Of a DNA stretch of 10,844 nt, positions 1,504-10,844 are shown in pieces. Both the position numbers and the translations under genes were made by a program. The stretch lies in assembly GCA_964474885.1 (NCBI GenBank), contig CAYYWO010000017.1:4373-15216 (forward strand). Reading direction: 5' to 3'. The stretch comes from Candidatus Hadarchaeota archaeon. GTDB lineage: Archaea; Hadarchaeota; Hadarchaeia; Hadarchaeales; JAWBSP01. How positions within the stretch are numbered: the first letter of the stretch is position 1; each line of letters opens with the position of its first letter. Below the pieces are notes generated by a model, which was given only the letters and a program-made list of their open reading frames with translations, searched no databases and was not told where the DNA came from.

Positions 1504-3423
1504 ATGTGCGGTATTTTCGGATTTTACGGCTTCAGCGATAAAGATCTCCTGATGGATATGAGCAGGATCCTCAGGCATAGAGGTCCAGACGATCGCGGTT
1601 TTTTCCTTGACGATAATCTGGGTATCGGAAACGTAAGGCTTAGCGTAATAGATGTTGAGGGTGGGAGGCAGCCTATATTCAACGAGGACGAATCAATTGT
1701 GGTCGTTTACAACGGGGAGATATACAACTTCAGGGAGCTGAGAAGGGAGCTGGAAGAAAGGGGTCACAGGTTTTACACGAACACAGATACGGAGGTCATA
1801 GTTCACGCGTATGAGGAATGGGGGTTCGACTGCGTCAGGAGATTTAACGGAATGTTCGCATTCGCCCTCTGGGATTCAAACAGGAAGATACTCTTTCTTG
1901 CAAGGGATAGGAGCGGAATAAAGCCTCTTTACTGGACAGTTCACGGAGATAAATTTATATTCGCATCTGAAATAAAGGCTCTGCTTCTTTATCCAGAGAT
2001 AAAGAGGGAGCTTGATCTCCAGGCATTTCACTACTTCATAAACCTTAGATACGTTCCGAAGGATTACACGCTCTTCAGGGGCATAAAGAAGTTACTTGCA
2101 GGGCATTACATCGTTGTGGGAGAGGATGGGATGAGCATAAGGAGGTACTGGAAACCTGTCATAAGCGTTAGGGATTATCCCGAGGGATACCTTGTAAAGA
2201 GACTATTAAAGATTCTGGAGGATTCCGTAAGAAGACATCTCATAAGCGACGTTCCCGTTGGCATATACCTGTCTAGCGGCATAGACAGCTCGACCGTGGC
2301 AGCGATTGCATCGAGGGTAAGCGAGGAACCTGTTAAGACATTCACGCTCGTCTTCGGAGATCCAAGGGATGAGCACGTAGATTCGAGGAGAATTGCCGAG
2401 GAGTTCGGAACGGATCACAGGGAGATACATATAGAGGAGTACAGGCTTCTTAAGGAGTATCCGAAGATGATATGGTACGCGGATATGCCGAAGAGAAACC
2501 TCTACCCCTATTATCTTGCAAGGGGTGTAAGCAGATATGTAAAAGTCGTTTTAAGCGGTCTCGGAAGCGATGAACTTTTCGGGGGATACGACTGGAAGTA
2601 CCAGTATGCTATGAGCGTCGAAAAGCTTAAGGGGTCTCTGAAAGAGAGAATTCATGCCCTGAAATCATATGCACGTGAGATAATCAGGGAGCTTTCGAAT
2701 CACGGATCTCTCGAGGACATAGAGCTTATAAACAGGCTGAAAAAGGTTCTTTTCATTGACAGCAGGGTTGATCTCTACCTGGCCGTTTCAAGTCTTGACG
2801 AGGTCTTTCTCGAGGATTACCTGAGGAATATATACGGTGAAGGCATGAACATCAACGGGCTCAAACCGGTTAGGGACGTGTTTAAAGAGTATTTCGAGGG
2901 AGATGAGGATTTCGTAGATCAGATACTCCTTGCAGATTACAGCGTCAAGCTAGTTGACGATTTTCTGCACGTTGAGGATACCATGTCAATGGCGAATTCG
3001 CTCGAATCCAGGGTTCCTTTTCTGGACTGCGAGCTTGTGGATTTCGCATTCACCATACCAAGTTACATGAAGTTCAACGGTGTAACGAACAAGTACATAC
3101 TTAAGAAGGCGATGATGGGAATTCTTCCGAAGGAGGTAATAAAGAGGGAGAAGAGAGGGTTCGGTGTGAACGTATACCTTAGATTCAAGGATGAGATAAG
3201 AGAATATGCGGAACAGATTCTGCCTGACGGAAATGCAGTGAAGCTGGGTTTGATAAAAAGGGATTACATTGAAAGGGTTTTGAGGACATATCCTCAGCCT
3301 GAGATGGCAAAGCACTACACCCTTTTATGGAACCTGATAACGTTTGAGATATGGTACAAGATGTTCATAGAGAACGATAGGATTGAAAAACCCAAGTTCG
3401 ACATCGATGCGTATATAGGGTGA
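1504..3423 (+). CDS. asnB: Asparagine synthase (glutamine-hydrolysing) family amidotransferase; in this context probably a sugar (uronic acid) amidotransferase
   Basis: N-terminal nucleophile MCGI, plus HRGPD, NGEIYNF, DTEVI, GMFAFALWD and RDRSGIKPL (class II glutaminase domain). Synthetase domain has SDVPVG..LSSGIDSS, SGLGSDELFGGY, MANSLESRVPFLD and KRGF. It lies between a flippase and a nucleotide-sugar enzyme. Confidence 0.92.
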   Translation: MCGIFGFYGFSDKDLLMDMSRILRHRGPDDRGFFLDDNLGIGNVRLSVIDVEGGRQPIFNEDESIVVVYNGEIYNFRELRRELEERGHRFYTNTDTEVIVHAYEEWGFDCVRRFNGMFAFALWDSNRKILFLARDRSGIKPLYWTVHGDKFIFASEIKALLLYPEIKRELDLQAFHYFINLRYVPKDYTLFRGIKKLLAGHYIVVGEDGMSIRRYWKPVISVRDYPEGYLVKRLLKILEDSVRRHLISDVPVGIYLSSGIDSSTVAAIASRVSEEPVKTFTLVFGDPRDEHVDSRRIAEEFGTDHREIHIEEYRLLKEYPKMIWYADMPKRNLYPYYLARGVSRYVKVVLSGLGSDELFGGYDWKYQYAMSVEKLKGSLKERIHALKSYAREIIRELSNHGSLEDIELINRLKKVLFIDSRVDLYLAVSSLDEVFLEDYLRNIYGEGMNINGLKPVRDVFKEYFEGDEDFVDQILLADYSVKLVDDFLHVEDTMSMANSLESRVPFLDCELVDFAFTIPSYMKFNGVTNKYILKKAMMGILPKEVIKREKRGFGVNVYLRFKDEIREYAEQILPDGNAVKLGLIKRDYIERVLRTYPQPEMAKHYTLLWNLITFEIWYKMFIENDRIEKPKFDIDAYIG

Positions 3424-3424
3424 T
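3417..3424 (+). promoter_or_regulatory. Shine-Dalgarno site (AGGGTGAT) overlapping the asnB stop codon
   Basis: AGGGTGAT contains the asnB TGA (3421-3423) and lies just upstream of ATG 3428, consistent with translational coupling. Confidence 0.7.
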
Positions 3425-3427
3425 GTT

Positions 3428-4333
3428 ATGATACTCGTAACAGGTTCGGCCGGGTTCATAGGAAGGAACATAGTTGAAGCTTTGAAGGAAAAGGAGATGG
3501 ATTTCATTGCAACGGACATAGTGGATTCACCCTTCAGGGATGTTGAGTACGTTAAGATTGACATAACGGACAGGAAAAGCGTTTTCGATGTTTTCAGGGA
3601 TTACGACATCGATTTCGTATTCCACCTGGCAGCCCATCCGCTTTCGGAATCTATAAGGGAACCAATGAGAAACGCCATGGTTAACATAATAGGAAGTCTG
3701 AACGTCATGGACGCATCCAGGGAGTTCGGAGTTAAAAAGATAATCTTCTCATCCGCATCCTCGATAGTTGGGGAGGTCATAAGAAATCCGGTTGACGAGG
3801 ATCATCCGTGCAAACCAAAAACTCCTTACGGTGTTGCAAAGTTCTGCATTGAGCACTATCTAAGGGTATATCAGGAACTTTACGGTCTTGACTACGTTAT
3901 ATTCAGGTTCTTCAACGTATACGGACCTTACCAGTATCCCAGCAGCGGAGCACTGATTCCGGTGGTAATGGAGAGGATAATAAGGGGAAAGGAGGTGTTC
4001 GTCTACGGCGACGGGAGAACTGCGAGGGATTTCATATACGTCGGTGACATAGCTGATTTCTACCTGGAAACGGTAAAGAGGGATGTAAAGAATGAGCTTT
4101 TCAACATGGGAACGGGTAAGCTCACGACCGTGATGGAGGTAATAGATCTGATAGCAAAAATCGTAGGGAAGGAACCTAAGATAGTTTACAAGCCAAGAAA
4201 ACCCGGAGAGATAATGAATTTTTCGGCGGATGTCAGCAAGCTCAGGAGGTTCTTTGGAAGGGTGCCGGAGACTACGCTTGAAGACGGTCTTAAGAGGACA
4301 TACGAGTGGTTCAAAAGGAATGTGATATCCTAG
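3428..4333 (+). CDS. NAD-dependent nucleotide-sugar epimerase/dehydratase (extended SDR, GalE/WcaG-like)
   Basis: Rossmann motif ILVTGSAGFIG, FHLAA, catalytic YGVAK (YxxxK), RFFNVYGP, GDG..ARDFIYVGD and FNMGTG. Confidence 0.92.
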   Translation: MILVTGSAGFIGRNIVEALKEKEMDFIATDIVDSPFRDVEYVKIDITDRKSVFDVFRDYDIDFVFHLAAHPLSESIREPMRNAMVNIIGSLNVMDASREFGVKKIIFSSASSIVGEVIRNPVDEDHPCKPKTPYGVAKFCIEHYLRVYQELYGLDYVIFRFFNVYGPYQYPSSGALIPVVMERIIRGKEVFVYGDGRTARDFIYVGDIADFYLETVKRDVKNELFNMGTGKLTTVMEVIDLIAKIVGKEPKIVYKPRKPGEIMNFSADVSKLRRFFGRVPETTLEDGLKRTYEWFKRNVIS

Positions 4334-4338
4334 AAAAA
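4334..4338 (-). terminator. Putative oligo-T terminator between convergent genes
   Basis: The only 5 bp between the two TAG stops are AAAAA, which read TTTTT directly after the aminotransferase stop on the - strand. Confidence 0.35.
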
Positions 4339-5439
4339 CTAACCCGATCTGAGGACATCCCTTATAACCCTGCATATCATCTCCTGCTGATCCTGTGTGA
4401 GCTCGTGATGGAGCGGTAGCGTAAGGGTATTTCTGAAAAGCATCTCGGAGTTCTCAAGGCTTCCGACCTTTTTTACTTCTCTGAATGCAGGTTCGATGTG
4501 CAGACAGTAAGTTCCTATCTGGGTTTCAACTCCAATCCTTGCAAGCTCCTCCCTTATTTTGTCCCTCATTCCATCTTTCTCAACATAGCAAACATAGCTC
4601 TGGAAGTTGTGCCTGGTTCTAGGTCTTACCTCTGGAGGCCTTATACCGTCTATTCCCTCTAGGATCTCCGTATATATCCTCGCCTTCTCAATTCTGATCC
4701 TGATTATATCCTCTATCTTTTCGAGCTGAGCTAATCCTATCGCCGAGAGTATGTCGCTCATCTTGTAATTCGTTCCGAACTCTACGAACCTCACCGAACC
4801 GTTCACATTCCTCATACCGAACCTCTTCAAACTCCTCGCCCTCTCCGCAAGCTCATCTTCATTCGTAGTTATCATTCCACCCTCTCCCGTCGTTATAACC
4901 TTTCTAGGATGAAATGAGAAGCAGGTCATATCTGCCCAAGATCCGACTTTTCTTCCTTCAAGTATCGATCCTGCACTGCACGCAGCATCCTCTATTACGT
5001 AAATCCCGTAATCCCTTCCAAGTTTATACACGTCCTTTTCAAGCGGGTTTCCGAATAGAGAAACGGGTATTATGGCTTTGGTCCTATCGCTCAAAGCCTC
5101 TTCTATAACCTCCGCTTTAACGTTGTAACTGTTCAGATCAACGTCCACGAGAACAGGTTCTGCTCCTACGAGTGCAACGACGGAAGCAGTGACGGGATAT
5201 GTGAAGTCAGGTACTATTACCTCGTCTCCCCTCCCTATTCCAAGAGTTCTCAGGCACAGCTCGAGTGCAGTGCTGCAGGAAGTTGTAGCTATTCCATGCT
5301 TTGCATCGCAGTACTTTGCAAACCTCCTCTCAAACTCCCTTGTAACCTCGCCCTCCGTCAGGAATCTGGATTCTAAAACCTTCCTAACGGCCTCGAACTC
5401 CCTCTCATCTATAAGGGGTCTGGCAAGGTATACCCTCAC
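4339..5439 (-). CDS. DegT/DnrJ/EryC1/StrS-family PLP-dependent nucleotide-sugar aminotransferase
   Basis: Motifs EFERRFA, GIGRGDEVIVPDFTY, TKAIIPV, VIEDAA, FSFHPRKVITTGEGGM (PLP Schiff-base Lys), GTNYKMSDI and LTLPLH. GTG start with a strong SD. Confidence 0.95.
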   Translation of the reverse strand: MRVYLARPLIDEREFEAVRKVLESRFLTEGEVTREFERRFAKYCDAKHGIATTSCSTALELCLRTLGIGRGDEVIVPDFTYPVTASVVALVGAEPVLVDVDLNSYNVKAEVIEEALSDRTKAIIPVSLFGNPLEKDVYKLGRDYGIYVIEDAACSAGSILEGRKVGSWADMTCFSFHPRKVITTGEGGMITTNEDELAERARSLKRFGMRNVNGSVRFVEFGTNYKMSDILSAIGLAQLEKIEDIIRIRIEKARIYTEILEGIDGIRPPEVRPRTRHNFQSYVCYVEKDGMRDKIREELARIGVETQIGTYCLHIEPAFREVKKVGSLENSEMLFRNTLTLPLHHELTQDQQEMICRVIRDVLRSG

Positions 5440-5441
5440 GC

Positions 5442-5450
5442 GATCACCTC
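5442..5450 (-). promoter_or_regulatory. Shine-Dalgarno site GAGGTGATC for the aminotransferase
   Basis: Plus strand gatcacctc reads GAGGTGATC on -, immediately upstream of GTG 5439. Confidence 0.8.
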
Positions 5451-5494
5451 TTCCCTCAAAGGTAAGATGAATTGAAATAGCTTTCGAACTTCTT

Positions 5495-5504
5495 GAAAAA
5501 GAGA
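5495..5504 (-). terminator. Putative pyrimidine/oligo-T terminator after the dockerin-protein gene
   Basis: TCTCTTTTTC on the - strand about 20-30 bp downstream of the TGA at 5525. Confidence 0.4.
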
Positions 5505-5524
5505 TGGTAATCGAAATTTCAACT

Positions 5525-6964
5525 TCAGAGTTCGCTTATCTTACCGAGCATGTAATAAGCTATCCTCGCAAGATCTCCTATGTCCACCCTTCCGTTCCCG
5601 TTGAAATCTGCCCTTAGATCCTGAGGATACTTCCCCACGACTATAAACGCAACATAGGCCGTGTCGGCTATGTCAACCTTTCCGTTTCTGTTGAAATCAC
5701 CGCTTTTTACAACCTTCCATCCGGTCAATATATAGATCGCACTGTATACCGGCGGCAGAGGTGGAAGTCTTATGCCCTTCCCCTGCTCCGGAATCGGTGT
5801 CGTCAGGTAATTGACGAAATCATCGCGCTGCTCTTTCACATAAACCTCTTTACCGCTAACGTTTAAATGAGATTCGAGCTCTTTCAGTTCATCCCTGCAG
5901 TACTTGTAAATCTTCAGAGATTTCTCGTCTATTCCCTCAACCTCATCCTCGTAGAACCTTATGCATATGATGGAATCCTCTATTGATCTCACAACCTGCT
6001 CACTCATAGCAACTGACAGATATCTTATGATCTCAAGATTCTTCCTCTCCAGCTCCTTTTTTATTTCATAGGGTAAGTTCTTGCCAACTATGAGATGCAT
6101 TTGACCTTCCGTCTTATTTAAAAACCTTAACACAATGCTGAACTCCTTTCCGTCCTCCACATAAATGAGATCTTTTCCCATAACAGTCGGACGAACGATT
6201 TCGGAGAAGTGCTTCACCTTGTCCACGTCGACTATTGCGAATCCCTCGTTTGAGCTTGCATCGTAAGCTCTGACTGCTATGCTGTAGAGACCCGTTCTGT
6301 AAGCGTATATATAACCGCGAATGTGCTTATACGATTCGTTGCCGGAGGCGTTCAGATAGATCTCGGATAAGTTCCCCATAATATAGCATACATTTCTCCA
6401 GCCAAATCCGCACTCTATAATTCCCTTACCGTTAAATAAAACTTCGACCCGAACGTTTTTCAGTACCATCTCATCGTAGACTTCTATATCGACTTCAAGC
6501 CTGTCCTCCTCAGTCCTTCCCCTAGGCTTGTTTATCTCTATCCTGGGAGGACTTCTGTCCCTTATGTCTATGGATTTAACCTTTACATTCCCATTCTCGT
6601 CAACGTATGTCACGTAAGCGTATTCATCTAGAGATATGTCCGGACTACGTGCGTTTTCTATTGTGACATGCTTCACAACCCTATCTTTGCAAATTCTCAT
6701 GTACAGGACATCACTACCGCTCTCAAACACCACGTTTGCACATCCCTCTCTATCTATCTCCAGCTTCGGATTCTTACCCTCTCCCAGAACGATCTCGATG
6801 ACCTTGTTGTTGTTCTTCCAAACGCTATAGCAGATATTTCCGTCAACCTCTTCAACCAAGTATATTTTACCCTTGTAATACCTCATCTCAAGACCTAAAG
6901 CTGGGGATAACGTGAGGGCTAATGTTAGAAGAATGAAAACCGTTATCGGAAGATATCCCCTCAT
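5525..6964 (-). CDS. Secreted modular protein with C-terminal type I dockerin (signal peptide, about 3 beta-propeller-like blades, Ig-like domain, PGF-pre-PGF-like domain, dockerin)
   Basis: Sec signal MRGYLPITVFILLTLALTLSPALG|. Ig-like signature DRSPPRIEINKP...YSIAVRAYDASSNEG. Segment ICIRFYEDEVEGIDEKSLKIYKY resembles archaeal surface domains. Duplicated Ca-loop/helix GDFNRNGKVDIADTAYVA / ADFNGNGRVDIGDLARIA at the C-terminus. SD present. Confidence 0.85.
   Translation of the reverse strand: MRGYLPITVFILLTLALTLSPALGLEMRYYKGKIYLVEEVDGNICYSVWKNNNKVIEIVLGEGKNPKLEIDREGCANVVFESGSDVLYMRICKDRVVKHVTIENARSPDISLDEYAYVTYVDENGNVKVKSIDIRDRSPPRIEINKPRGRTEEDRLEVDIEVYDEMVLKNVRVEVLFNGKGIIECGFGWRNVCYIMGNLSEIYLNASGNESYKHIRGYIYAYRTGLYSIAVRAYDASSNEGFAIVDVDKVKHFSEIVRPTVMGKDLIYVEDGKEFSIVLRFLNKTEGQMHLIVGKNLPYEIKKELERKNLEIIRYLSVAMSEQVVRSIEDSIICIRFYEDEVEGIDEKSLKIYKYCRDELKELESHLNVSGKEVYVKEQRDDFVNYLTTPIPEQGKGIRLPPLPPVYSAIYILTGWKVVKSGDFNRNGKVDIADTAYVAFIVVGKYPQDLRADFNGNGRVDIGDLARIAYYMLGKISEL
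5528..5701 (-). repeat. Dockerin type I duplicated motif (aa 422-479)
   Basis: Two D-F-N-x-N-G-x-V-D-I-x-D motifs 30 aa apart. At DNA level, 5578-5608 and 5668-5698 match at 27 of 31 nt, 90 bp apart. Confidence 0.9.
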
Positions 6965-6969
6965 ACAAC

Positions 6970-6977
6970 ATCACCCT
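6970..6977 (-). promoter_or_regulatory. Shine-Dalgarno site AGGGTGAT for the dockerin protein
   Basis: Plus strand atcaccct within the 19-bp gap between the two - strand genes. Confidence 0.75.
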
Positions 6978-6983
6978 TGTGCC

Positions 6984-9900
6984 TCAATAAAGAAAGATCG
7001 GTATGTAATCCGTTCTGGTCGCATAGTACTCGATTGTACTGTTTACCCTATCGATGGCATTACATAAGGCCTGCTTTGCAAATTTGCTGGGAATTTCTCC
7101 CATGATGACGTAATCTATGAGGTATGATACAAGCTTGGAAGGACTTATGAGAACTTCTGCAACCTCTTTTGCAAAATGATGCTCTCCTGTCATCTTCTCA
7201 ACACCATAGGCTATTAGTATACCAATTCCGGCACCGAGGTAATATCCGGCCACTGCAGCAGGTCCCAGCCTAGTAGCCGCACCAGTTGCAATCTGATACA
7301 GGCCAACTGTCAGACTCATCGAACTGAACATAGCTGAAGCACACTCCTCTGTTAACTTCTCAAGGAGTACTCTTTCAGCTATCGGATCCCTTACTTTTTT
7401 GTACTCTTCGCAGTACTTATTGATCTTGTATATCGTATAACCCAGAATTATGGAATCCGTCACAACTCCTCCTAAGTCCGATATCTTACCTTTAATCTCT
7501 TTACATTTGAATATTTCTTTCAGATCTTTGTCGCCGATGTTCTTTATACTATTCCAAGTATTCTTTATTTTTTTCAATGCATTTGCAAACTTCGGATATT
7601 TCATGCAAATCTTCTCAATCTTTAGAAGGACTTTTCTAAGTTTAATGAATTTCTTACCCAGCTTTTCTGCGTATTTCGACGATTTTATCTTCTTAAATAT
7701 GTTATCAATCTTGAATTCATCAAGAGCCTCCTTGCACTTCGTGAAGTTTTCACAAACCTTTATCCATTTTTCTACAGCACCTTTTACCGTGCAGTAAGCA
7801 TTAATGAGTTCTCTCGTTTTCTCATCGACCTTTTCACCTATATTCGTCACATCTGCCGCAAAACAGAAGTCTATACTCTTCGGATCAAATATGACCTGTA
7901 TCGCTTTGAGATAAGTTCCGTAGCGCTCCAACTTCTGAACAAGGATTATCTGATCTGTGATTATTGCCTTAGCATATTCAACGTTTTCATCACGTATTTC
8001 GTCTATGACGGCCTTAATCCTCGCCATGTCGTACATCGAGAGGTCTTCAGGATTTCTCCTGAACTCAGTTGTCGTGACTTCCATAATACTCTTATGCACA
8101 CCGTTTTCGTGCAGATGGAGTTTGTATATAGCTCTAAACGTCGTGAGTGCGTACGTGTTGTTTTCCTTAAGTATCGTATCGTATTCGTTGTAATCTACCC
8201 TGCTGTAGACCTCTCTACCAAGATCTTCTGTAAGCGTGTAATCGTCGTAATACGTTACCGTTATGGTATTCGGATAACTGAGATTTTCCTCATATGCAAT
8301 GTAATATACGTCATCTACCGTCTTTGCAACGATGACCGCAACATCCGCGTTTTCCGTCCCGCTAATGGCATTTTTTATAACATTCCTGAAGTACACGGTG
8401 TATCCCTGTAAGCTCAGCGATGTCCTGTCTTTGAGGGGTTGTTGGGCGTCGAGTTGCGTTATACTCTCAAGCACTTTTGTTATGTTTACATGATCCTTCA
8501 TAAACACGACATACGTATAGTTATACCTTCTAAGCGTTATGCTCCCTATGCTCGCATCCAATCTCTTCATGCTCCACGTTGATCTATCTCCCGTATCAGG
8601 CATCTTTATTGCAATCGGGAATACTGCGATTTCATCCGTTCCGGGCAGAACCTTTATCGTAGCCGTGTAATAATCGTGAGTCTTTACAAGCATCTTCATG
8701 TCCTCTAACAGCAGCTTATAATCGAACTCATAATCGTACGCGTATACAGGGGATCTGTTGAAGAGCATGTACTTCACAGCAGGCTTATATCCCTCAGGAA
8801 CTTCTGCCTTAACGTAAAGTGTTATATAATCGCCGTCTTCAAAATCGTAACTTATTGGAGCATACTTCAGCGCTTTGCTTGGATCACATTTATTCGATGG
8901 AGCGTATCTGTTATCCTCCAGATAACACGCGCTCAAGTTATTCGTAAGTGTAACTCTCCATGGTGAGGCGTTTATCCAGTATACTATTTTATAGCACCAT
9001 ATACCCCTGTGCTCCTTTAATCCCTTTGAGGCAAATGCCACAAACTTGTCGATCGTGTAAACAGGCCATTCCTCCTTTTCAATATACTTTAAAACAAGGT
9101 AATCATTTCCCGCAGCTCTACGGATCGCAGCCCTTGCACACACATCCTCAATAGCATAGCCGCTGCAACTCCTGTATATGCCCAGCTTACCCTTGCTGTA
9201 CAGTACATCACATCCTATATCGGATACATAAGACTCTCCATCGAGTATAATGCCTATGTACTTTGCCGGAATTTCTATCATTCCGGGCTTGAGGTATATC
9301 CTATCAGCCTCAATCTTACCCCATTTTATATCAACACCGTCCGGAATTCCGTCCCCATCGCTGTCGGGATTTGCCGGATCGTATTCCAGACCCCTACTGC
9401 TCATCGCAATCTCATCGCCGTCCGAAAGACCGTCCCCATCGGTATCTGCTATTAAAACGAACGTGTTTCTCTCGTAACCATCTAAAATTCCGTCTGTATC
9501 TGTATCGTTTGTGAACGGATCTGAACCCTTCTTCAATATGACTATGTATTCGATCTTACCATCACCTGATATCTTTAAGTTATGGCTTCCTTCGTACAGA
9601 TATCCGGAATAAACCAGTATGGCATCTCTCGATCCGAGCAAGCTGGAATAGTCAATGGAATCTATTCTTTCATTCCTTAAGAACATGTAATAACTGCCGT
9701 TCATGAAGACCGCTGCGTTAAAGTTGGATGCTTTAATGTAAATCTTATACGTTCCATTTTCGTGAATCGTGAAAGGTATTGTTACCTCTGATGCATAAAG
9801 GTAAAGACCGTCCTCACAGGCAACTGCCTCACCAGCTCTGTATTCACATTTGGTCTTTTCGAAGAGATCGCTGACCCTTATGTAATCGTATACGAAGTAC

Positions 9901-10844
9901 TTGTTGACCTCATCGTAATCGCTCAGACCATCCATATCTGTATCGTTCATCCACGGATCCGTTCCGTAAATGACAACTTCCTCGTAATCGCTTAAACCAT
10001 CACCATCGCTGTCGTACTTCGTCGGATCAGTTTCACCTATCTCCCTATCTACCTTACCGTTCAGATTTATGTCTTCCTGCCAGTCAAAGAGACCGTCACC
10101 GTCACAATCTTTACTAACTGGGCATGGATCAATTCCATCCAGTAGACCATCTAAATCGCAGTCGGGCGAGTATATGGCTGGATTTCCGTCTTCACATATA
10201 CAGTCCGGCTCCTGACTATCCATTAGTCCATCGTTGTCAGAATCGCTGTTTATGGCAGCGTATAGATCGTATCTTTCGGCATAGTAAAGCCTTCTTTCGC
10301 CGTAGTAATACCTTAAGTCCGGTTCTCTCGAATATCCCATGGAATCGAATCTGTACACGTATGCATCGTAATCTTTAGTGCTTGTGTTGTACAGGACTAA
10401 GCATATTGCGTTTAATTCTCTGACGGCTGGTTCCGTTTCGAACTTGAATTCATCGACATATATACCTCCTGATTGTGCTCCAATTGTCACGTTCGAATCT
10501 CCGCGCATTGGATACACTATGAAGGTCCTTCTGAGGACTAGCGAATTGTTATGTTTGATCAGGATGTTAACCTTCTTTATGAAAGTATTGACGTATACGT
10601 CAAGCGTGTACCAATCTGAAACGTTAATTGTGCCAAGCGGGTATTCCGGTATGCTTAGCGTGCTCAGATCTAGCTTTATCGTTGCCGATTCTGAATCAGA
10701 ACTGGCATTGATCGATAGGTATCTATCCCTGTAAATAGTCACTTCTGAGTTCGGATCTACCTTAAATGATATCAGTGCTCTGTAGGAGTTATTGCTACCA
10801 AATGGTAGGGCTTCAATGCTCATATACGAATTCTGTAAATGAAC
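6984..10844 (-). CDS. Giant modular, probably extracellular protein with thrombospondin type 3-like / binary-toxin-like Ca-binding repeats and a C-terminal membrane-active helical domain (5'-partial)
   Basis: The frame stays open past ATG 10823 to the window edge (VHLQNSY-MSIE...), with no SD and no signal peptide visible, so the true start is probably outside the window. It has eight DxDxDG[LI]xD motifs, many N-x-S/T sequons, about 23 Cys, a Lys-rich region and a Gly/Ala hydrophobic hairpin near the C-terminus. Confidence 0.85.
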   Translation of the reverse strand, partial: VHLQNSYMSIEALPFGSNNSYRALISFKVDPNSEVTIYRDRYLSINASSDSESATIKLDLSTLSIPEYPLGTINVSDWYTLDVYVNTFIKKVNILIKHNNSLVLRRTFIVYPMRGDSNVTIGAQSGGIYVDEFKFETEPAVRELNAICLVLYNTSTKDYDAYVYRFDSMGYSREPDLRYYYGERRLYYAERYDLYAAINSDSDNDGLMDSQEPDCICEDGNPAIYSPDCDLDGLLDGIDPCPVSKDCDGDGLFDWQEDINLNGKVDREIGETDPTKYDSDGDGLSDYEEVVIYGTDPWMNDTDMDGLSDYDEVNKYFVYDYIRVSDLFEKTKCEYRAGEAVACEDGLYLYASEVTIPFTIHENGTYKIYIKASNFNAAVFMNGSYYMFLRNERIDSIDYSSLLGSRDAILVYSGYLYEGSHNLKISGDGKIEYIVILKKGSDPFTNDTDTDGILDGYERNTFVLIADTDGDGLSDGDEIAMSSRGLEYDPANPDSDGDGIPDGVDIKWGKIEADRIYLKPGMIEIPAKYIGIILDGESYVSDIGCDVLYSKGKLGIYRSCSGYAIEDVCARAAIRRAAGNDYLVLKYIEKEEWPVYTIDKFVAFASKGLKEHRGIWCYKIVYWINASPWRVTLTNNLSACYLEDNRYAPSNKCDPSKALKYAPISYDFEDGDYITLYVKAEVPEGYKPAVKYMLFNRSPVYAYDYEFDYKLLLEDMKMLVKTHDYYTATIKVLPGTDEIAVFPIAIKMPDTGDRSTWSMKRLDASIGSITLRRYNYTYVVFMKDHVNITKVLESITQLDAQQPLKDRTSLSLQGYTVYFRNVIKNAISGTENADVAVIVAKTVDDVYYIAYEENLSYPNTITVTYYDDYTLTEDLGREVYSRVDYNEYDTILKENNTYALTTFRAIYKLHLHENGVHKSIMEVTTTEFRRNPEDLSMYDMARIKAVIDEIRDENVEYAKAIITDQIILVQKLERYGTYLKAIQVIFDPKSIDFCFAADVTNIGEKVDEKTRELINAYCTVKGAVEKWIKVCENFTKCKEALDEFKIDNIFKKIKSSKYAEKLGKKFIKLRKVLLKIEKICMKYPKFANALKKIKNTWNSIKNIGDKDLKEIFKCKEIKGKISDLGGVVTDSIILGYTIYKINKYCEEYKKVRDPIAERVLLEKLTEECASAMFSSMSLTVGLYQIATGAATRLGPAAVAGYYLGAGIGILIAYGVEKMTGEHHFAKEVAEVLISPSKLVSYLIDYVIMGEIPSKFAKQALCNAIDRVNSTIEYYATRTDYIPIFLY
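9330..10244 (-). repeat. Array of Ca-binding DxDxDG[LI]xD (TSP3-like) repeats in two clusters (9909-10244 and 9330-9527)
   Basis: First cluster: DSDNDGLMD, DCDLDGLLD, DCDGDGLFD, (DINLNGKVD), DSDGDGLSD, DTDMDGLSD. Second cluster: DTDTDGILD, DTDGDGLSD, DSDGDGIPD. Linked by TDP/SDP/YDP turns. Confidence 0.88.

Follow-up and report, generated by a model that had tools for sequence, protein, structure and literature searches.

The 10,844-nt stretch of archaeal DNA analyzed here (the window; G000:C17:4373-15216, whose right edge is the end of the contig) encodes on its minus strand two adjacent proteins: P0001, a giant protein of at least 1286 residues, and P0002, a protein of 479 residues that is predicted to be secreted and that ends in a type I dockerin. 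On balance, and with modest confidence, we favor the interpretation that the two are co-transcribed, strain-specific proteins of the cell envelope and that P0002 is a cargo held on a surface cohesin. P0002 would be exported via Sec and then kept on the cell surface by binding of its dockerin to a cohesin encoded elsewhere in the source genome, as a cargo of a non-cellulosomal, Archaeoglobus-type cohesin-dockerin system and not as an adaptor for P0001. P0001 itself would be a giant extracellular calcium-binding protein, adhesin-like or part of a coat, and the Lys-rich helices and Gly/Ala-rich hydrophobic pair in its C-terminal part may hold it at or in the membrane. The pair borders a gene cluster for the synthesis of surface glycans, on DNA that comes from an Archaeoglobaceae genome; in the relatives, cohesins are borne by small membrane-anchored proteins and by giant surface proteins.

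The dockerin-bearing protein and its relatives

P0002 occupies positions 5525..6964 of the minus strand. Its N-terminus, MRGYLPITVFILLTLALTLSPALG, reaches a Kyte-Doolittle value of 2.17 and is predicted to be a Sec signal peptide (6893..6964, minus strand; residues 1-24, ending in ALG, with the site taken from the sequence and not from a predictor). At the other end stands the dockerin (5528..5704, minus strand; residues 421-479), with two calcium loops, DFNRNGKVDIAD and DFNGNGRVDIGD, that both fit the 12-residue, EF-hand-like pattern D-x-N/D-x-N/D-G-x-x-D-x-x-D and both lead into a helix. The Pfam model Dockerin_1 (PF00404) matches at 28.3 bits, above its cut-off of 22.9, and residues 419-479 align over the whole module with solved type I dockerins from the PDB. 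Apart from Dockerin_1, neither a catalytic nor any other Pfam or NCBIfam family matched the protein. A preliminary description of this DNA, made from its letters, had called the second protein secreted, without a recognizable catalytic domain, and terminated by a type I dockerin, and all of this holds.

The body between these two ends (5705..6892, minus strand; residues 25-420) is an ORFan. In a low-confidence model, it is beta-rich and then alpha/beta, with a possible Ig-like stretch at about residues 135-250; the model, made from the single sequence with AlphaFold 2 (AF2), has a predicted local distance difference test score (pLDDT) of 36.9, too poor for a fold search. A search of the ESM Atlas with residues 24-415 gave a best score of 0.75, which is the chance level, and residues 1-420 matched, among metagenome contigs, only the near-identical contig L182 discussed below. 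The word-index search with P0002 returned three matches, to the dockerin only and covering 11%-13% of the query; no longer protein containing the body was found by word search, which is weak evidence. In 92 Archaeoglobaceae genomes there were matches in nine, all of them inside residues 410-479, and of 61 genomes in the phylum to which the bin belongs two match: that of the bin and a second one, where a 38%-identical dockerin is what aligns. In a pairwise comparison, the body also aligns weakly (E 0.033) with the Big_7 region of a large secreted protein on contig C18 of the same bin.

Dockerins of the P0002 type (50%-73% identical) occur in six of the 92 Archaeoglobaceae genomes and are C-terminal every time. 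At five loci of two genomes, it terminates an S8 subtilase, an M23 peptidase, a pair of NosD/beta-helix proteins of which one also has PKD domains, and a PQQ-propeller/beta-helix protein; across these unrelated carriers, the second repeat of the dockerin is highly conserved. In the family as a whole, 20 of the 92 genomes have a cohesin that exceeds the Pfam cut-off and 33 have a dockerin that does so (36 at E <= 0.01); 19 of the 20 cohesin-bearing genomes also carry a dockerin. Among the six genomes with the P0002-type dockerin, a cohesin exceeds the cut-off in four, only sub-threshold matches occur in a fifth, and the sixth has none. In one relative, a 279-aa protein consists of a signal peptide, a cohesin (33.8 bits), and, at the C-terminus, a hydrophobic tail.

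By analogy with these genomes, non-cellulosomal display on the cell surface via a cohesin is plausible for P0002, because secreted proteins of the relatives end in the same dockerin, four of the six genomes have cohesins, and one of them has the anchored 279-aa cohesin protein. The preliminary description had proposed a cohesin scaffold at the cell surface, serving contact-dependent antagonism or adhesion rather than polysaccharide digestion; the relatives make the display plausible, and the effector and antagonism part of the proposal is unsupported. Dockerin-tagged surface proteins were already known in Archaeoglobaceae. What is added here is one more such cargo, fully ORFan, together with counts showing that, within Archaeoglobaceae, this dockerin type moves from one kind of secreted protein to another, unrelated one, and that the genomes concerned encode cohesins too, one such cohesin being membrane-anchored. 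The pattern fits general surface tethering rather than a special effector system.

The giant protein and its proposed pairing with P0002

P0001 (6984..10844, minus strand; at least 1286 codons, with its stop TGA at 6986-6984) is truncated at the 5' end, where both the window and the contig stop, so its N-terminus, start codon, and any signal peptide lie outside the sequence. As the preliminary description stated, and as can be read directly from the sequence, the two genes are co-directional and 19 nt apart (6965..6983, minus strand), with a Shine-Dalgarno (SD) sequence, GGGTGAT (6976-6970), in the gap, 5 nt ahead of the ATG of P0002 (6964-6962). GGGTGAT fits the usual archaeal anti-Shine-Dalgarno. 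Given this spacing, P0001 and P0002 are probably co-transcribed.

In vent metagenome contigs (Logan; three studies, one of them possibly the source), all six of the six differences from P0001 are synonymous, third-position changes, and because of this the P0001 reading frame is, on the evidence of these variants, under selection. Metagenome contig L182 is collinear with window positions 2772-6758 at 99.875% identity, with five mismatches, of which the lone one within P0002 is synonymous. L182 begins inside P0002 and stops short of the giant gene; since it is a separate contig that reproduces this part of the window, the arrangement there is no assembly artefact of the bin. None of the data sets listed as containing the stretch is from RNA.

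P0001 carries calcium-binding repeats. TSP3_bac (PF18884) is the sole family to match the protein, at 41.9 bits against a cut-off of 25, and a motif scan finds eight strict DxDxDGxxD loops in two arrays that the Pfam scan also covers: residues 201-310 (9915..10244, minus strand), with five strict loops and a loose one, and residues 447-503 (9336..9506, minus strand), with three. The calcium-repeat modules of the preliminary description are thus confirmed. The lectin-like module that it placed in the giant is not borne out: searches of Pfam and NCBIfam with a threshold as loose as E <= 10 match no lectin, LamG, or Concanavalin A-like family to the N-terminal 200 residues, and BLASTP finds no match between P0001 and the Laminin_G_3 domain of the secreted protein on contig C18.

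From residue 515 to its end at residue 1286 (6987..9302, minus strand; 772 residues), P0001 is an ORFan, beta-rich and then all-helical in an AF2 single-sequence model whose pLDDT of 33 is too poor for a fold search. These residues have no match among 1.84 billion representative proteins, none in the word-index search, none in metagenome contigs, and no usable match in the ESM Atlas. A match in one of the 92 Archaeoglobaceae genomes (E 0.009, 13.3 bits) was judged to be noise. Because everything but the dockerin and the TSP3 repeats is ORFan, conservation of the gene pair cannot be compared across genomes.

Within this part, a Lys-rich region at about residues 1040-1150 (7395..7727, minus strand) is helical in the low-confidence model; residues 1051-1100 hold 17 K/R against two D/E, in keeping with the cationic stretch noted previously near the C-terminus, and residues 1101-1150 hold 11 against eight. 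A pair of Gly/Ala-rich hydrophobic stretches follows (7200..7343, minus strand; residues 1168-1190 and 1193-1215), with TRLGP between them and a tail of 71 residues after. The preliminary description had seen a hydrophobic hairpin here: the two stretches are present, but their Kyte-Doolittle means reach about 1.1 in the first and about 1.6 in the second only. No PGF-CTERM-like archaeal C-terminal sorting signal matched in NCBIfam, and 71 residues stand after the hydrophobic stretch. A PDB sequence-search match of residues 1168-1223 to 8j1m_A (E 0.9) is not significant.

The earlier proposal was that P0001 is toxin-like and that P0002 is an adaptor, chaperone, or immunity factor that plugs it into a cohesin scaffold for contact-dependent antagonism. 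We consider this very unlikely. The tight co-directional spacing with a Shine-Dalgarno between the genes speaks for it, as does the C-terminus itself, Lys-rich, all-helical in the low-confidence model, and with the Gly/Ala-rich pair. Lys-rich helices and a Gly/Ala hydrophobic pair recall membrane-inserting pore formers. Against this, searches of Pfam and NCBIfam at E <= 10 returned no family of toxins, pre-toxins, colicins, or immunity proteins. The colicin-type pore-forming domain (Pfam PF01024), a ten-helix bundle around a buried hydrophobic hairpin, has no Pfam match in P0001 at that threshold, and the AF2 model, at pLDDT 33, is too poor to judge the fold by. The immunity proteins of known polymorphic toxin systems are small and cytoplasmic or membrane proteins. 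P0002 is a secreted multidomain protein of 479 residues with a signal peptide and a dockerin, unlike such small immunity gene products, and the adaptor, chaperone, and immunity roles are unsupported; P0002-type dockerins, moreover, tag ordinary secreted enzymes in the relatives, and the pair was conserved nowhere that was searched, so that there is no co-location evidence for a functional partnership. A complex prediction for P0001 residues 900-1286 with P0002 residues 26-479, made from single sequences with no alignments, gave an interface score (ipSAE) of 0.00 in two runs without controls and counts neither for nor against binding.

A more daring variant is, in our estimation, more improbable still: P0001 might end in a new, colicin-like membrane-inserting helical domain, with amphipathic Lys-rich helices surrounding a Gly/Ala hairpin, used against neighboring cells, with P0002 holding or neutralizing it at the producer surface via a cohesin, which would be in the missing N-terminus of the giant or on a membrane anchor. 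If true, this would be an archaeal contact weapon organized by cohesin and dockerin.

Cohesins, contig origin, and remaining alternatives

Several results weigh against a reading in which P0002 is a cohesin-held cargo and P0001 an envelope protein. No cohesin was found in the bin, either with the Pfam Cohesin model at E <= 1 or with two hidden Markov models (HMMs), one trained on 13 of the 14 over-cut-off cohesin segments in the bin's phylum (a 66-position fragment being left out) and one on 30 Archaeoglobaceae cohesins (29 of 52 over-cut-off segments plus one at 22.0 bits). When nine segments of P0001 and P0002 were compared by hhalign with the combined cohesin alignment, all probabilities were <1%. 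Seventeen of the 36 dockerin-bearing Archaeoglobaceae genomes lack an over-cut-off cohesin, so that a dockerin with no partner in evidence is a common situation, although many of these genomes are incomplete. The case for membrane anchoring by the C-terminus of P0001 is weak: a single stretch has typical transmembrane hydropathy, it is not followed by a positive cluster, and 71 more residues come after it. The 772 residues of P0001 and about 395 residues of P0002 have no assignable function, neither AF2 model can be used (pLDDT 33 and 37), and we infer co-transcription from nothing but the 19-nt gap.

The preliminary description reported no cohesin in the window, and Pfam, the two cohesin HMMs, and hhalign all agree with it. 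Residues 280-386 of P0002 gave a weak match to the first cohesin HMM (E 5.5, 4.5 bits), which is not significant and was not repeated with the larger HMMs or with hhalign. That description also made the presence of cohesins in the genome a test of its proposal. None was found in the bin, but this outcome is uninformative about the system, because contig C17 is foreign to the bin and most of its source genome lies outside it.

The bin, G000, comprises 1.18 Mb in 60 contigs, is rated 92% complete with 3.1% contamination, and carries an archaeal 16S gene on contig C4. Its large contigs have GC contents of 0.52-0.56, and 35 contigs, amounting to 196 kb and including C13, C16-C18, C24, and C27-C29, fall below 0.48; the GC content of C17 is 0.436. 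The AsnB-type amidotransferase of the window is 82%, 81%, and 78% identical to those of three Archaeoglobaceae genomes (eight of 92 match at E <= 1e-50), and among 20 relatives of the bin just one genome matches, at 50% identity. Five glycan genes of C17 are in synteny with their counterparts in Archaeoglobaceae genomes (57%-84% identity). Judged by these gene comparisons, C17 derives from the genome of a hydrothermal-vent member of the Archaeoglobaceae and was mis-binned into the metagenome-assembled genome (MAG) of another archaeon. Further, the bin looks chimeric, with at least two foreign populations despite the rated contamination of 3.1%, because AhcY is present three times, on C18, C56 (77% identity), and C3 (54%, the bin's own copy), and because low-GC contigs carry Archaeoglobaceae-like genes; the C18 copy is 84%-86% identical to genes from Archaeoglobaceae/Archaeoglobales MAGs. 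The 35 low-GC contigs, about 17% of the bin, need care in use. The main practical lesson about the data is that, C17 being foreign to the bin, a partner missing "in the genome" carries no meaning.

Contig C18 also encodes, at C18:2043-8021 on the plus strand (locus L012), a secreted protein of 1993 aa in which Laminin_G_3 and Big_13/Big_7 are combined with two PQQ-type propeller blocks and a right-handed beta-helix. The dockerin that ends this protein is 77% identical to that of P0002, which, along with the AhcY of this sister contig, counts toward the Archaeoglobaceae origin of C17.

The truncation of P0001 leaves room for the giant itself to be the scaffold, with a cohesin in its missing N-terminal part to which P0002 docks, the two forming a self-contained cohesin-dockerin unit. 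We regard this as unlikely, although there is one precedent, and only one, at locus L186 of a complete Archaeoglobaceae genome (G087:C1:1682000-1700000, minus strand). Three genes are adjacent there: one for a 746-aa S8 subtilase that also contains MAM and dockerin domains; one for a protein of 2372 aa that has a cohesin at its N-terminus in addition to FG-GAP, CARDB, an alpha-2-macroglobulin thioester domain (TED), and PEGA; and one for a protein of 271 aa that matches cohesins weakly and has a hydrophobic tail. The cohesin of the giant (residues 35-177) matches the HMM of the lineage at E 4.7e-24 and a solved scaffoldin cohesin at E 2.5e-5, and the trio looks like a self-contained unit of protease, giant cohesin protein, and anchor. 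However, P0001 has no homology to the giant of G087, its 1286 available residues contain no cohesin by the HMMs or hhalign, and only one of five dockerin genes inspected in the relatives adjoins a gene encoding >1000 aa.

A search for the missing 5' end of P0001 found no contig in the bin that overlaps the end of C17, and Logan contigs from two runs reach just 57 and 95 nt past it. The sole plausible candidate in the bin is C29, the only low-GC contig with a large secreted open reading frame (ORF) running off its 3' end, which has no overlap with the end of C17. This ORF (C29:70-4698, plus strand; locus L011) encodes >1543 aa, with a signal peptide, Big_7, a NosD beta-helix, and long TSP3 arrays; the cohesin HMMs find no cohesin in it, which is a further point against P0001 as the scaffold.

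The dockerin might also act without any cohesin, for instance as a calcium-dependent fold that binds another component of the envelope, with the two genes as mere neighbors in a variable island. This, too, seems to us improbable. The lack of a cohesin in the bin and in 17 of the 36 dockerin-bearing Archaeoglobaceae genomes is what it would predict, but most of those 17 are incomplete MAGs, and all but one of the 20 cohesin-bearing genomes have dockerins as well. The conservation of the second dockerin repeat across unrelated carriers suggests a shared protein partner. In the bin's phylum, six of 65 other genomes have a dockerin, and in all six it is in the same ORF or locus as a cohesin (loci L014-L045); the arrangement is a cohesin followed directly by a dockerin, with a second cohesin gene adjoining. 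The interpretation of P0002 as cargo of a surface cohesin encoded elsewhere is the one that we retain.

The surroundings of the pair are those of a glycan-synthesis cluster. On the plus strand, the window encodes a flippase, the AsnB-type amidotransferase, and a sugar epimerase, to which a DegT-family aminotransferase on the minus strand (4339..5439), at the edge of the cluster, is to be added. It lies 85 nt downstream of P0002, with a T5 tract and an SD, GAGGTGATC, ahead of it, matches DegT_DnrJ_EryC1 at 354.6 bits, and is 84% identical to its syntenic Archaeoglobaceae orthologue. In the relatives G129 and G110 (loci L179 and L181), the DegT gene runs in the same direction as the epimerase gene and is followed by unrelated genes, whereas in the window it is inverted relative to the epimerase. 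Because the orientation and neighbors of DegT differ in this way, the orphan pair can be placed in a rearranged, variable spot; by this comparison of gene orders, the rearrangement breakpoint falls exactly at the two orphan genes. A run of 100 N (G000:C17:4273-4372), a scaffold gap, stands immediately 5' of the first base of the window.

Comparison with known systems

For P0001, the nearest named model is CglD (NF033765), an adventurous-gliding lipoprotein, and what the two have in common is TSP3 DxDxDGxxD arrays in a very large extracellular protein. The match covers the repeat region only (residues 227-312) and scores 63.8 bits against a cut-off of 400, so that P0001 is not a member of the family. 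Compared with the giant TSP3-repeat surface proteins of bacteria and archaea, P0001 stands apart in that its remaining 772 residues have no relatives. An archaeal toxin system tethered by dockerins was not found in the literature searched, which is no proof of its absence from print.

The closest likeness to P0002 is in the dockerin carriers at loci L183-L187 in Archaeoglobaceae, in which a dockerin 45%-73% identical to that of P0002 is always the last module and usually ends in GKIxEL. Those carriers have recognizable enzyme or beta-helix domains, and P0002 has none. The system to which such modules would belong has long been described: Chadwick et al. (PMC9012536) state, citing papers of 1999 and 2008, that the dockerins of Archaeoglobus bind cohesins in a non-cellulosomal system, and, for the modules of Archaeoglobus fulgidus, they cite Bayer, Coutinho & Henrissat 1999, Haimovitz et al. 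2008, and Peer et al. 2009. According to the same paper, non-cellulolytic cohesin-dockerin pairs of archaea have been known since 1999 without a settled role. P0002 shares with the A. fulgidus modules the archaeal family and a type I dockerin with two canonical calcium loops at the C-terminus of a secreted, non-cellulolytic protein, with relatives that have cohesins. It differs in that its body is an ORFan and in that no cohesin partner can be named from the available assembly.

A second comparison is offered by the anaerobic methanotrophic (ANME) archaea, as described by Chadwick et al. (PMC9012536). Their scaffoldin-like proteins contain as many as five cohesins, and the binding proteins of their ABC transporters bear dockerins; nothing of this sort is seen in the present case. 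In both, however, dockerins are borne by diverse extracellular proteins with no link to cellulose, and the carriers differ strongly among close relatives; a role in organization of the cell surface has been suggested (PMC9012536).

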